This document shows positions 1,495 to 60,535 of a DNA stretch of 64,000 nucleotides, one piece after another. Made by a program: the position numbers and the translations under genes. This DNA comes from Eledone cirrhosa (Eukaryota): contig OZ024741.1 in the NCBI GenBank assembly GCA_964016885.1, positions 96,162,001-96,226,000 on the forward strand, read 5' to 3'. The notes beneath the pieces were generated by a model. It saw only the letters and a list, made by a program, of their open reading frames with translations, did no database searches and was not told the DNA's origin. How positions within the stretch are numbered: position 1 is the stretch's first letter; every line of letters starts with the position of its first letter.

Positions 1495-2680
1495 AATAAT
1501 ATTAATAAATTATCTTTATAAAACCCTATTTATTTTATTATATATATTTCAAGGGTACCAAAATGTTGGTACGCTCTCATCAGATAAAATACAAAAGTTG
1601 TTTTACAGATAGTGACATATTAAAAACTAGAACTTAACGTTTTGAGTTCTGTTTGAATAGTGAAGAAGAACTTCAAATCATAGGATGAATATGCTAATGA
1701 GGATAACGTTAAAATTGAAAAAGATGGTTATGTTTAGACGCTAGATTTATTTAAATAATTGTTAGGATTATTTTTTAAAGGAAAAGGAAATAGAGGTTAT
1801 TATTAGGGAGGAAGGAAATTTAAGGAAAGATTTTAAGAAAAAAAAAAATTAAAGTTAATAATAGACTATTAATATGAATATATGTATATAATTGTGTGGA
1901 GCATTATTTTTATTTATTTTATTATTTAATTATATATTTTGGGAGTATTTATAATATAATGTGTGATTTATAAATGTGTTAAAGTGAGAGAATATTAATT
2001 TAAAATGTGAGAGAGATATATTCTATTGGTCTTTTAATATCATAAAGATGGTATTTATAAGTATATTTTATGAAGATTACAGTTGTAAGTATATTTATTT
2101 TATTATATTACGGCAGGTTAGTTATATATATATAAATAGTTTTGGTGAGTATATATGTTGTTTATTTAATTGATAGATAATTTATATATTTTTTATATAT
2201 GAAGCGTTAGGATAATTTGTGTTTATATTTTCAATATATGGTTTAAGAAAATATTTTAGTATAGAAGATGCACACTATTTAGTATATTCAATAGCTGCAT
2301 CAAGATAGGAATAAATTTACGAAATTTAATAAATTTTAATATTTATGTAAAGTTTACCTGTTACTTAGATAAAATGTGTAACCCCGTTTCATTTCAAAGG
2401 AAAAGATAAACCTAATATTTCTTAGTTTAAATAGTTAAGTTATATTTACCGTTTATTCTAGAATTATCTTCCAAATAATATTCTAATTGTAATATATGGA
2501 AAAATTATTTTATATATGATTTTATAGTATCATACATATTTTCTAAGATAACAATTTTTTTGTATTTTGTTAACATTACTTATATCCATGCTTAAGTTTA
2601 ATGATATTAAGTATTTGTATGTATGGATTTACAACGCTTATAGAGTCTATTAGGAAAGAATTCAACAGACATCCAAAGTA
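1495..2680 (-). mobile_element. Highly degraded Penelope-like element (GIY-YIG relic, 3' UTR and pLTR)
   Basis: Minus-strand remnants LTCRN...HLYDIK; G-poor strand like the other PLE 3' UTRs; ends in a hammerhead homologous to the one at 60471. Confidence 0.45.
1531..1591 (-). ncRNA. Type I hammerhead ribozyme, intact core
   Basis: Minus: TATTTTAT CTGATGA gagcgtacca-acattt-tggtaccctt GAA ATATATAT A ATAAAATA; 8-bp stem I, palindromic stem III, AUA triplet. Confidence 0.85.
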
Positions 2681-2685
2681 TATAA

Positions 2686-2830
2686 AAAAATATCATTAAA
2701 AACATCACAAAAAAAACATTCAAGAATATCATTAAAAACCGCACAAAAAAAAAACATTCAAAAATATCATTAAAAACATCACAAAAAAAAAACCATTCAA
2801 AAATATCATTAACAACATCACAAAAAAAAA
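2686..2830. repeat. Minisatellite, about 31-bp unit, about 5 copies
   Basis: aaaaatatcattaaaaacatcacaaaaaaaaacattc repeated. Confidence 0.8.
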
Positions 2831-3370
2831 CCCCAACAAAGCACGGCAAAGACATATAAAATGTAAATAGGTGAGATATAGAGGCTATAAATAATATTTT
2901 CTATAGATTATAGATACTTCTAAAAGTCTTAGACTGACGATGAGTGCAAGAGTTAAATAATTGTTTCTTTTTGTTTATAGCGTTTTTTTGATTGGTAATG
3001 ATGTGAAATATTTCTCCAATACGTAAATGACAAACTCTTGCGAGAGCCGTATTCCGGTATGCGGGCGCTTTCGAAATCGTTCTCCAAGAGATTGAATAAT
3101 CAATATTATTGTCTTTTAAGTGCCAAATTAGATGTGAAAGTGATGTTGAGAATTTTTTATCCGATCTATTAAATGTGTGTTTGTGATTATACCGGTGTAT
3201 ATATTTTTTGCCCGATCTATTAAATGTGTGTTTGTGATTATACGGTGTATATATATATATATATATATATATATATATATATATATATATATATACAGTG
3301 GTGGACTAGGTCTAAAAATATTGGTTGCCCACCTATATATAGAATGCTATCATTTAATTTTTATAATGAA

Positions 3371-4100
3371 CTAGCAGCAGTACCCAACGTTGCCTGGGTA
3401 GGTAAAATAATATCTGCTTTGATGAAAAGGTGTTGACCTTAGCGACTGCTTCTCGATGACTCATCTATGGCCACACACAGGCCACGGGTGACTGACGAAG
3501 GGGCATGCTGGGGGAGGGAGTTTCAAATTTGAACGAAATCGCTTGAAAAATGTGGGAGCTAGAGCCGAAAAGGCGGAAATTTGAGCGAAAAGGTGGTATT
3601 TTCGAATATTTAAGCGACTGCCACACCGTTCCTGAACAAAAAATCCAAAATGTAAAGCCACCTTAAGACGTGAAATAATCAGCTCTAGCGTAGTGTAAAA
3701 TTTGAACAAAGTAGGTTGATTAATGTGGAAGCTAAAGCCGAATAAGTTGAAATTTAAGTCTAAAAGTGGTATTTTTGAATATTTAAGCGGCTGCCACGCC
3801 GTTCCTGAACAACATATGCAAAATATAAAGCCATTACAGGATGTGCAATGATAAATTCTATTTTGCTTTAAAATTTGAACGAGATCCGTGGCAAAATGTG
3901 GGAGATAGAGCCAAATATCTTATTTTTATCTGCAAAATGACCACGGAATAAAAAAAAACGATACGCTGATATATAGAAAACACTCTCCGATGACTAATCT
4001 ATATGCCTGTAAAGTTTCATGAAAATCGGTCGTAAGATGTAGGCCCCTACAGGTAATACACAGACACAAACACACATATTTAATTTTATATACATACAGA
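3371..4100 (-). mobile_element. Non-autonomous Helitron
   Basis: Minus-strand 5'-TC at 4100 and 3'-CTAG at 3371 preceded by hairpin tacccaacgttgcctgggta; inserted between A and T; internal ~175-bp tandem duplications. Confidence 0.7.
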
Positions 4101-57235: not shown

Positions 57236-58158
57236 TATGTGGATATATTCATGTGTATGTATGTGTCCGCATGTATCTGTGTGTTTCTCTCTATATATTG
57301 CATATATATATATATATATATATATCTAGGGACTGTAACTTGGAATTACTGCAGGTTCACCCGGTTGAGCACTCGATGTTTAGGTTCACTTCTGTGTTGT
57401 GATGTAGAGCTATACAGAGTGTAATATATTGAAAGGATAACAAGGACGATTGGTTACTCCTTCATTACATTTATTGGTAGGTGACGCACGTTTTGCCACT
57501 GATCAGCTCAAGGTTCAATCTGTATCGATCTTACCCGACTCAGTAATCGGCAGCTCGACGGATCCTTTAAAATGGTATAAGAAAATGAATACATGCTATG
57601 TGATAAATTCATAAGTTCATAAGTTGTACAATATGGGTTGTTTTGATTGGAGGAAAAGATCATAGGGATGTATTGGCCTGTAGTGCATGTGGAGGTGGAT
57701 GTAATGATAAGGTGTTGGTGACGGTCGCTGGTTGCGATGGGCTGTGATGTGGGGGTGGCGGATTGACTTTCGCCTGCAATGTGTGTCGGGGTGGATGTGA
57801 TGATAAGATGGTGGTGACGGTCGCTGACTAGGATGGGCTGTGGTGTGGGGGTAGTGGATTGTCGGTAGACAGGTTGGCGTATATTTGTGGCTGGTTATTG
57901 TGTGGGGTGTGGTTGTGGTGTTGTTGTTTATGGTAGTGGCATATGTGGTGGTGTGGTGGATGTGTTGGTGGTGTCAAGTCCATGGGGAGGTACATATCTA
58001 GACACTCTTAGTCTGACAAATACGTTGTATATATATACATGCGCATATGTACTGACATATATACATACACACTTATATACACACACATACACGCCCCCAC
58101 ATACATCCACACGTACATATATCTATATGCATATATACACACACACATATATATGCGC

Positions 58159-59553
58159 GGTAGAAATTGAACCTAACAGTAGGACAGAAAACCTTTTAGA
58201 TGTCACCCTAGAATTAGATTTAGGTCTCTACCGTCCATACCACAAACCTAATGAAAATCGTAAATACGTCAACAGACACTCCAACCACCCTAGGAGCATA
58301 ATCAACTCAATAGTTAAAAGCGTCAACAATAGAGTATCCACCCTGTCGGCTAATAGAAATATCTTCAACCAGCACGCGGAATACTACAACTCCGCACTTG
58401 TAAACGCTGGTTACATTGAGAAGATTTCTTACATCGATCCAAATAGAAACGTAACGCCGCCAAACATAACCGGACCCTTAGAAACGAACACAGAAGAGGC
58501 CACCACACCTAGAACAAATAATAACTTAAGACCCCCTGTAGCCGGCAGGGCAGCCAGCGTCACACACAACCGTCAAGGAGATAAAGCCATACTCTCCAAC
58601 CCCAAATAAGGACTCCGACTATCGCACACGTTTACGTAGTAATAGAGACAAAAGACATAACGCCAACAGATTTCTAGGAACCCCTATGACACATATGCCT
58701 GACCAAAACGCACCCATACTACCACCTAACCACAAAAACCTCACTAAACACCGCAGAGCCCGAAGTAGACCTGTCACATGGTATTCTATACACGTTGCAA
58801 CCAATATACCGGGAACCTTCTTCAGGGCTCTTGAACAATCTTTTCCACACACACATAAATACCACAAGCTCTTCAATAGACACACTGTAAAATTCTCTTT
58901 CTCCACAGCACCAAATCTAGGCCACACAATAGCACACACCAATAGGACAAAAATACGAAAAAAAATGGTTTCCCCACAACAAACCACTACCACAACCCAG
59001 AATGAAACCACATACACAACACAACACAACAACCCACATGCCAGCTCCACACAGCACGCCACCAACCGACAACGTGCCACCACACTGGTAACACCCAACT
59101 GCAACTGCAAAAAAACGGGCTGAATGCCCACTAAAGGGGGAGTGCCTCGTTAAAAACATTGTTTACCGGTGTGATGTCACAGCCGGCAATAAAGAGTACT
59201 CATGTATAGATGCAACCTCCACTACATTTAAGGAGCGCTGGTATGACCATAGAAGCTCCTTTAAACATAGGCTGAAACGATCCCAAACCAAACTGGCCGA
59301 CTTGATCTGGGACCTCAAGGACAAAAACATCGAATCCCAGGTCACATGGTCAGTCAAAAGACGCGTGGCACAACTCCCCAGTGACAGAAACCACTGCAGG
59401 TTATGCCTAGCCGAAGCGGCAGAAATAATTAAATTAAAATCTGTCATAAACTATAGGTCAGACATAATTGTCAATTGCAGACACACCAGGATGAACACAT
59501 TTTCCGCACAAATATTCGGTGGAGGGCCGCACACTAACCATGACCCAACATAA
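58159..59553 (+). pseudogene. PLE RT thumb and GIY-YIG endonuclease, disrupted, with Thr/Asn-rich inserts
   Basis: LLDVTL, YRPYHKPNE, SNHP, HKYHKLFNRHTVKFSFS, CNC...CPLKGECL, IVYRC, FKERWYDH, CRLC, CRH. Confidence 0.85.
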
Positions 59554-60470
59554 TAATAACCACCTCTGCCCCGTCTCACCATCGCCCATCTCAGTGAATT
59601 TATTTTATTGTATTGCATGTAACCATTTGTAAGCCCGTATCTTGTATATCATGCCGCATACATCACCCCACCAAAAATCACATCGCCATACACCCCTCAT
59701 CTTTGCAACATTGTGTTCTATCTGCCCTCTCTGTCAGGTTTTACCTTGCAAACCATAGTAACATCCGATCATATCACCCCATCGCCACCAACACCACCGT
59801 CCACATCGTTATATGTCTACCATCCCACACCCGCAACCTTACTCTCCCATGTTCCCTCTGTCTACCCTAACCTACAACCCCACGCAAAATTCGATCCTGT
59901 AAATGTACTGTCGAACACACCACCACCGCCACCACTAGATACATCCACATACTTCAACAATCACTAACATCATTAACATCATCAACACATATCATCCCTC
60001 CCTCCCAGAACCACTGTGTTATATCTGCCCTCTCCCTATGCTTTACCCTGTAACCCACCGTAACATCTGATCATGTAATCATATTGTTGAACATATCACC
60101 CCATCACCACCACCACCACCACCATGACCACAGCACACATCGCTATACGTCCACAAACTTTTTCCCCCGGTGTTCCCAATGTCACCTTTTAACCTGTAAC
60201 CCATCGTATTATTCGATCCTGTATATTTTTGTCGCTAACATCTCCACCACCGCCACCACAAGACACAATTCCATACCTCAACATTCATTAACTTCATTAA
60301 CATCGCCAACACATACCTTCCCTCTCGAACCAACGCAAGTGTGTGTGTCTGTGTGTAAGTATTTTTATATATGTGTGCATATATATATGCATATATATAT
60401 ATAGCCAATTTCAACCGTTGAGGTTGTCTTTTTTCCGGGTATGTCAATATTTATTTATAAAACAAATCTG

Positions 60471-60535
60471 TATTTTATCTGATGAAAGCGCACCATAATT
60501 TACCTTGGTCGCCTTGAAATATATATAATAAAATA
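60471..60535 (+). ncRNA. Type I hammerhead ribozyme in a separate short insertion (60404-60670)
   Basis: TATTTTAT CTGATGA aagcgcacca-taatttacct-tggtcgcctt GAA ATATATAT A ATAAAATA; stem I extended by tatttataaaac/gttttataaata. Confidence 0.85.

Follow-up and report, generated by a model that had tools for sequence, protein, structure and literature searches.

The stretch of Eledone cirrhosa DNA analysed here, 64,000 nucleotides at G000:C2:96162001-96226000 (hereafter the window), contains hammerhead ribozyme motifs and remnants of Penelope-like elements (PLEs). This work concerns stem III of these hammerheads, which is a palindrome in most of their families, and the way in which it may be used. 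The survey covered the window and 1.8 Mb from nine places of the genome, 1,864,000 bases in total. The genome (3.0 Gb) is microsatellite-rich, and a repeat search of the window was dominated by simple repeats.

Hammerheads of the window and their carrier elements

A sequence-only reading of the window had cited 13 sites with a palindromic hammerhead stem III. All 13 palindromes exist (minus strand: 1540, 6727, 7326, 28981, 30779, 36470 and 49978; plus strand: 28503, 44452, 48400, 55021, 57043 and 60519); the sites had been named by their motif starts, and the palindromes lie within the motifs. Each is immediately preceded by GAA(A) and followed by an H base. The hammerhead context holds for nine of these sites, which are intact type I motifs in which the CTGANGA core is canonical and stem I measures 4-8 bp (1531, 7318, 28392, 28975, 30774, 44427, 49972, 54955 and 60471). 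It does not hold in full for the other four: one has decayed stems, two have mutated cores and one lacks a core. A type I core (CUGANGA or U3-A8 ... GAAA ... UH) is present at 10 of the 13 sites, nine canonical and one U3-A8. Stem II is predicted to fold in eight of the nine intact sites and is weak at 44427. An Rfam scan gave no hammerhead model among the matches listed (150 of 164 at E<=1), a poor fit explained by the open stem I and the long stem II. Rfam matches to microRNAs and small nucleolar RNAs in the window were microsatellite-driven and were dismissed.

The palindrome ATATATAT is found in intact hammerheads at 1531-1591 (minus; palindrome 1540-1547), with a GIY-YIG remnant 1.4 kb upstream (2905-3248, minus), and at 60471-60535 (plus), about 1 kb past the reverse transcriptase (RT)/GIY-YIG remnants (58058-59550) of an insertion at 57424-61552. 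A further ATATATAT hammerhead, at 49972-50045 (minus), has an unrelated stem I (GCTGT/ACAGC). The ATGCGCAT hammerhead at 48346-48416 (plus) has the same stem I as the ATATATAT and ATATGTAT families. The palindrome ACAATTGT is found at 7318-7432 (minus; palindrome 7326-7333), with a stem II region of 82 nt and a 5'-truncated inverted partner at 7585-7592 (plus); at 28392-28516 (plus; palindrome 28503-28510), with a stem II region of 96 nt and a stem I (TTCCA/TGGAA) unrelated to that of 7318; and in a minimal hammerhead at 44427-44464 (plus), which belongs to a third unrelated family (CGAG/CTCG) with ACATTTGT as a related subfamily. Hammerheads with ACTAATTAGT lie at 28975-29056 (minus), with a tandem copy devoid of a core 547 bases upstream (29527, minus), and in a tail-out inverted pair of identical copies at 54592-54674 (minus) and 54955-55037 (plus), spanning 54592-55037. 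This pair and other inverted pairs were considered as dimer partners and rejected, since copies on opposite strands are not partners within one RNA.

Two of the cited sites, 48346 (CTGGCGA instead of the CTGATGA of its family) and 57040 (TTAATAA), have mutated cores here, and other copies of both families are intact. The latter site belongs to a ACTACGTAGT hammerhead at 56965-57058 (plus), of a U3-A8 family (TTGATAA) that forms tandem arrays of 591 bp elsewhere. The ACCGGT hammerhead at 36461-36505 (minus) has a U3-A8 core (TTGAAAA) and decayed stems. At 6721-6842 (minus), GAAACATATGTC lies behind a long hairpin and (GAT)n stands in place of the core and the 5' strand of stem I; a genome search with this pattern matched only 6721 itself, and the motif is considered an unconfirmed relic. 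A (CAT)n microsatellite (6837-6916) begins exactly at the expected CTGATGA core, which may have seeded the repeat or been used by a truncation. For the ACATATGT family, the genome pattern search found no copy elsewhere.

Other hammerheads had been overlooked: one at 41089-41133 (plus) with a non-palindromic centre, AGAACT (41122), others with ACCTCTGGT elsewhere, further copies of known families, and a U3-A8 family whose stem III is a bulged palindrome of 19 nt. Members of the latter lie at 43551-43645 (plus), 45462-45555 (plus) and 41655-41749 (minus) in a Penelope-like insertion (41562-45656) that retains a GIY-YIG remnant (42274-43008, plus), and a truncated pair is found at 7848-7904. The insertion at 57424-61552 also holds, in its left arm, a decayed, minimal hammerhead-like text (CTGATCA ... 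ACGTGCGTC; 57505-57530, minus).

Judging from sequence, these hammerheads are marks of the 3' ends of PLEs and of retrozyme-like arrays, and where a protein remnant is testable the PLEs are of the Hydra type, an assignment made from broken C-terminal RT pieces together with motifs. Among six fragments, the Hydra-clade motifs CxCx5C (linker), CxxC..E and N..CxH were found in two, three and four, respectively; a C-terminal GIY-YIG is present, and the inverted arms of insertions end in (TA)n. The window remnants resemble RT + GIY-YIG proteins (a weak match to RVT_1). In their Atlas clusters, 31% of the members carry PF01541 or 16-44% carry PF00078, and molluscs and cnidarians account for most Atlas neighbours of one window protein. 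A Pfam search of the protein fragments gave no GIY-YIG match.

For sites 1531, 30774 and 60471, the position in a PLE end, downstream of RT + GIY-YIG, is seen in the window itself. For the ATGCGCAT, ACCGGT and 7318-type families the link to PLEs comes from other loci, and we do not extend it to the families of 28392, 28975/54955, 49972 and 57040. Pairings of a protein type with a ribozyme family recur, at seven loci for the 19-nt family, three for ATGCGCAT and five for ACCACTGGT. Inverted hammerhead pairs are tail-out in 119 cases and convergent in 6.

Some families form retrozyme-like tandem arrays of 420-590 bp units. One such array (L182-L183, G000:C3, ~250.11-250.12 Mb) consists of 19 units of 467 bp that carry an ACTAGT hammerhead and are arranged tail-out, 14 of them on one strand and 5 on the opposite one, and another (L129-L130, G000:C8, ~20.19 Mb) has six 591-bp units with the ACTACGTAGT U3-A8 hammerhead. 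In the available parts of the reports on animal retrozymes of the non-LTR kind (LTR, long terminal repeat) (PMC7229834; bioRxiv 10.64898/2026.07.22.740005), tandem units of 400-600 bp with one hammerhead each are likewise described, and stem II of the axolotl HHR_Amex2 also has U.U at its base. In contrast, most copies in the window are PLE ends that have been truncated, not arrays.

Palindromic stems III and probable pairing between copies

To avoid circularity, the main descriptor was blind to stem III, where it demanded only A...U. Searched in this manner, the survey DNA yielded 126 hammerhead hits, and stem III proved self-complementary in 105: 80 are Watson-Crick palindromes without a loop, 10 have a one-base loop and 15 are G.U palindromes, while 21 are of other kinds. 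Ten dinucleotide shuffles gave 13 hits in total (1.3 per shuffle), none with a Watson-Crick palindrome. Since the first pair of stem II is frequently mismatched, a strict descriptor recovered just 14 hits; U.U, C.A, A.G or A.A stands at that position in 10 of 24 families, and the stem II region measures 12-121 nt. A looser descriptor, with the U3-A8 core added and the limits widened, gave 182 hits, compared with 38 in six shuffles, none of them palindromic. Its hits form 47 clusters, and the 24 that are multi-copy are the families counted here. Stem III is a Watson-Crick palindrome in 18 of them, a G.U palindrome in two and a bulged one in another, so that the earlier observation of palindromes kept across families of differing sequence stands for 21 of the 24.

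Complementarity extends to the bases that would form the loop of a monomer: Watson-Crick pairs number 28 of 32, where chance would give 0.27. This statistic involves 18 distinct family sequences (ACCT was omitted as too short), which are related and not fully independent, and the resulting P of 1e-12 is therefore too small. One clan defined by its stem I switches among three palindromes, ATATATAT, ATATGTAT and ATGCGCAT. Its pattern has 50,843 genome matches (control, 91), and when the centre was left free, a hand count among the 100 matches listed gave GCGC 55, ATGT 22, ATAT 12, ACGC 4, ACGT 2 and five single variants; the centre is self-complementary, G.U allowed, in 94. The 7318 family has 2,120 genome matches, with AATT in 90 among the 100 listed. 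The 19-nt family is the largest here by pattern count (69,411 genome matches).

Palindromes of this kind have a precedent in PLEs, for which Cervera and de la Pena (2014; PMC4209133) gave the hammerhead consensus 'GAAAN-Palind-NU H'. In the parts of that report considered here, PLE hammerhead dimers cleave and the monomer does not, and in the double hammerhead the stems III pair mutually while each core takes the cut site and the 3' stem I strand of the other copy. Applied to the Eledone families, this established geometry suggests that a self-complementary stem III would pair between two copies in one transcript; in the resulting double hammerhead each core would cut the site of the other copy, with stems I swapped as well as stems III. 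Our reading, to which we assign a probability of about 0.78, is that these hammerheads lie at the 3' ends of PLE families and their non-coding offshoots, that stem III likely pairs two copies in one transcript, and that the palindromes drift.

Computed energies are consistent with pairing. For each of the 28 family representatives compared, a set without family 18 and 18 singletons, the homoduplex is more stable than two monomer hairpins, by 6-20 kcal/mol. The dissociation constant of stem III at 37 C ranges from 5.6 mM to 0.8 nM, with 5.6 mM for ATATATAT and 31 uM for ACAATTGT; pairing is therefore most plausible within one RNA. According to the model, dimers between separate RNAs are unlikely for AU-rich families and may form in GC-rich families or at 15 C. 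Dimeric folding, proposed in the sequence-only reading by analogy with PLE hammerheads, thus finds support in covariation and computed energies, and is already published.

Several observations weigh against this reading. In whole-motif cofolds, stem III pairs between the two molecules in just 6 of the 12 dimers of minimum energy, and three of the 24 families lack a palindromic stem III. A homology search found 444 hammerhead copies, and 304 of these have no same-family, same-strand partner within 6 kb (163 have an inverted partner only and 141 are alone, versus 140 with a partner). Of 98 PLE protein pieces, 34 have a same-strand hammerhead within 2 kb and 25 an opposite-strand one, a weak bulk link explained by the nesting of elements. 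Stems of 9-19 nt can also fold as monomer hairpins of 3-7 bp. Furthermore, invertebrate retrozyme hammerheads with 2 bp and a tetraloop cleave efficiently as monomers (PMC7229834), and a lizard PLE hammerhead requires protein and is not needed for insertion in vitro (PMC11167929), as far as the available parts of these reports go.

The possibility that the motifs work mainly as monomers, perhaps aided by protein, with the palindrome as a by-product or an optional second fold, draws on these same facts: hairpins in the 9-19 nt families, tandem partners missing for most genomic copies, and the published cases of protein-assisted and of efficient monomer cleavage. Monomers, however, give no reason for the self-complementary loop bases found across families. 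The 19-nt stem III folds alone at -7.1 kcal/mol yet retains its palindromic AGCT centre, and palindromes of six bases yield just 1 bp and a loop as monomers (+5.6 to +6.0 kcal/mol). We thus consider monomer function improbable.

The palindromic stem III and the dimer reading are known. In the available parts of PMC4209133, type I hammerheads at PLE ends, the palindrome consensus, the U3-A8 core variant and many families per genome with differing palindromes are all described, and the published activity is low and dimer-dependent. The Eledone set differs in its stem II regions, which reach 117 nt and frequently begin with U.U, C.A or A.G, in palindromes as long as 19 nt, in an internal G17 copy in one family, and in being much denser, with about 180 descriptor hits in 1.86 Mb. 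For PLEs of the Hydra clade, section 11 and File S2 of Craig et al. 2021 (PMC8557442) likewise show stem III palindromes with loops of 0-3 nt, among them ACCAATGGT in Hydra-1_oBim, ACTCGGAGT and ACAGTACTGT, together with a stem II that has U.U at its base, (TA)n targets, the CxCx5C linker and tail-out inverted insertions.

Divergence of the palindromes

The sequence-only reading had further suggested that different palindromes confer family-specific dimerisation. As a family code, the palindromes are not supported by the sequences: 8 of the 24 families share one, and a drift simulation gave 6.3 (P(sim<=obs) = 0.82). Within the window, ACAATTGT occurs in three unrelated families and ATATATAT in two. 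In the parts of the literature at hand, ACTTwAAGT is common to many Hydra vulgaris families (Craig File S2, PMC8557442), and three Aedes families have two different palindromes (Fig. S3, PMC4209133). In our main reading the palindromes drift under the pairing constraint, differing between families because any symmetric sequence suffices, and exclusion between families is predicted to come jointly from the two stems, I and III, as well as from physical linkage, not from a selected palindrome code.

Of 756 ordered cross-family pairs, 54 are compatible in stem III and 44 in stem I; 12 are compatible in both, which exceeds the ~3 expected under independence, and these pairs are mostly sisters. A stem I mismatch blocks 42 of the 54 pairs compatible in stem III, so that stem I discriminates no less than the palindrome does. 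The palindrome swap proposed earlier as an experiment ignores the cross-paired stems I that a double hammerhead needs. In the model, differing palindromes can nevertheless contribute to exclusion, for instance between the ATATATAT and ATGCGCAT sisters, whose stem I is the same.

A selected code that prevents cross-dimers between co-resident elements would agree with the mutual incompatibility in silico of the eight palindromes cited earlier (cross duplexes of -3.5 kcal/mol or weaker), with the sisters of identical 8-bp stem I that differ in palindrome alone, and with the 224 of 444 copies that have a same-strand hammerhead of another family within 3 kb, where cross-talk could matter. The eight, however, fail to cross-pair because they are different, and the sharing of palindromes at the level of drift, the unrelated families with one palindrome and the excess of pairs compatible in both stems make such a code highly improbable. 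Whatever its origin, this divergence makes the genome a source of dozens of natural stem I/III pairs predicted not to cross-react.

A two-hammerhead family, and other features of the window

The element at 30671-35606 is a Hydra-type Penelope-like insertion in (TA)n, with inverted arms of 1.7 kb that are 89% alike and a broken frame at 32279-33849 (plus) that comprises RT, linker (CxCx5C) and GIY-YIG. Each arm carries two hammerheads, and in both arms the inner one has G at position 17 (G17) and the outer one A (A17). One arm has an intact terminal ACCACTGGT hammerhead at 30771-30829 (minus) and an internal ACCACTGGT copy at 31977-32036 (minus), whose core is mutated in this copy (CTGAAAA). 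In the other arm, the internal copy (ACCATTGGT, core CTGAAGA; 34189-34248, plus) lies 392 bases past the reading frame, and the terminal ACCACTGGT copy (35447-35506, plus), with one mismatch in stem I, lies 1,258 bases beyond it.

Two hammerheads about 1.3 kb apart are native to the 3' untranslated region (UTR) of the ACCACTGGT family. The family pattern has 4,409 genome matches, with G17 in 15 among the 100 listed; 13 of these 15 sit 0.7-7.3 kb upstream of a same-strand A17 copy, and none lies downstream of one. Genome-wide, 372 matches to the G17 pattern were found. In all 13 pairs fetched, the spacer that separates the inner copy from the terminal one is homologous (~1.26-1.3 kb where unaltered), and in four of five loci the inner copy lies 337-392 bases past the reading frame. 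With the inner flank fixed and position 17 free, the 100 matches listed of 258 have G in 95, A in 4 and C in 1. When the core was left free, 89 among the 100 matches listed of 183 were canonical by hand count, and other core variants appeared at most three times each. Position N7 of the 89 canonical cores is A in 47, G in 25, T in 16 and C in 1. Fetched copies of all three N7 lineages (T, G and A) have G17, in three of three cases for T; the association was drawn from fetched loci and from matching positions between two genome pattern listings.

G17 strongly impairs minimal hammerheads and merely slows those with tertiary stabilisation, according to the available part of PMC3884650; for this reason, a block at the inner site is a prediction. 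If the fixed G17 blocks the inner cut, the RNA would keep its 3' end. Two explanations of the inner copy can be considered. One is that it is a duplicated relic, silenced or mutated once in a master copy and devoid of a catalytic role. The duplication appears young, with few differences in ~95 bases; stem II is weakened in the largest lineage (-1 to -3 versus -7 to -8.9 kcal/mol); the N7 change from T to G is found in both copies, so that conversion is possible; and no other repeated G17 family was found in 1.86 Mb (10 raw rows, 6 loci, none repeated). Less easily accommodated are the presence of G17 in all three N7 lineages, the uniformity of the canonical core, and the contrast between ~8-10 lineage-level changes at free positions and none at ~31 critical ones, for which our own rough estimate of P is ~0.03. 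On balance, we regard the relic as a slightly better than even proposition.

The other explanation is that the uncleavable inner hammerhead acts as a built-in partner, which would pair via the shared palindrome and cut only the terminal site. Such a one-way double hammerhead would set the RNA's 3' terminus without a tandem copy, and at standard state the computed double fold of an inner and a terminal copy is more stable than two monomers by 9 kcal/mol. We put this idea forward tentatively, as one that we doubt more than we believe. If it is true, the fixation of G17 would point indirectly to in vivo cutting by PLE hammerheads; the role of the hammerhead in the life cycle of the element is left open in the available parts of PMC8557442 and PMC11167929. 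An internal site with a fixed one-base block and a kept core is also a natural construct for testing cis-dimer cleavage.

The layout of two hammerheads in one 3' UTR, the inner of them with a fixed G17, is probably an undescribed variant. Each Hydra consensus in File S2 of PMC8557442 has one hammerhead with an A, C or U site; Penelope-13_HM has two, the second from an inverted copy, and no entry of that file has a second, same-strand G17 copy, as far as its available part goes. A literature search, with the content of Lunse, Weinberg and Breaker 2017 outside its scope, listed no report of a heterodimer, a G17 partner or a two-hammerhead layout.

The window also contains other mobile elements. 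Besides RVT_1, an uninterrupted frame of 1,033 amino acids at 14737-17838 (minus) has a cysteine/histidine and restriction-like region at its C terminus, and presumably belongs to an R4/Dong-type non-LTR element. A fragmented RT element at 19678-23357 (plus), which we take to be RTE-like, has RVT_1 at 21600-22727 and an endonuclease-like piece upstream. Lastly, a Tc1-like transposase remnant with HTH_Tnp_Tc3_2 and HTH_SB domains was detected at 46032-46763 (plus).

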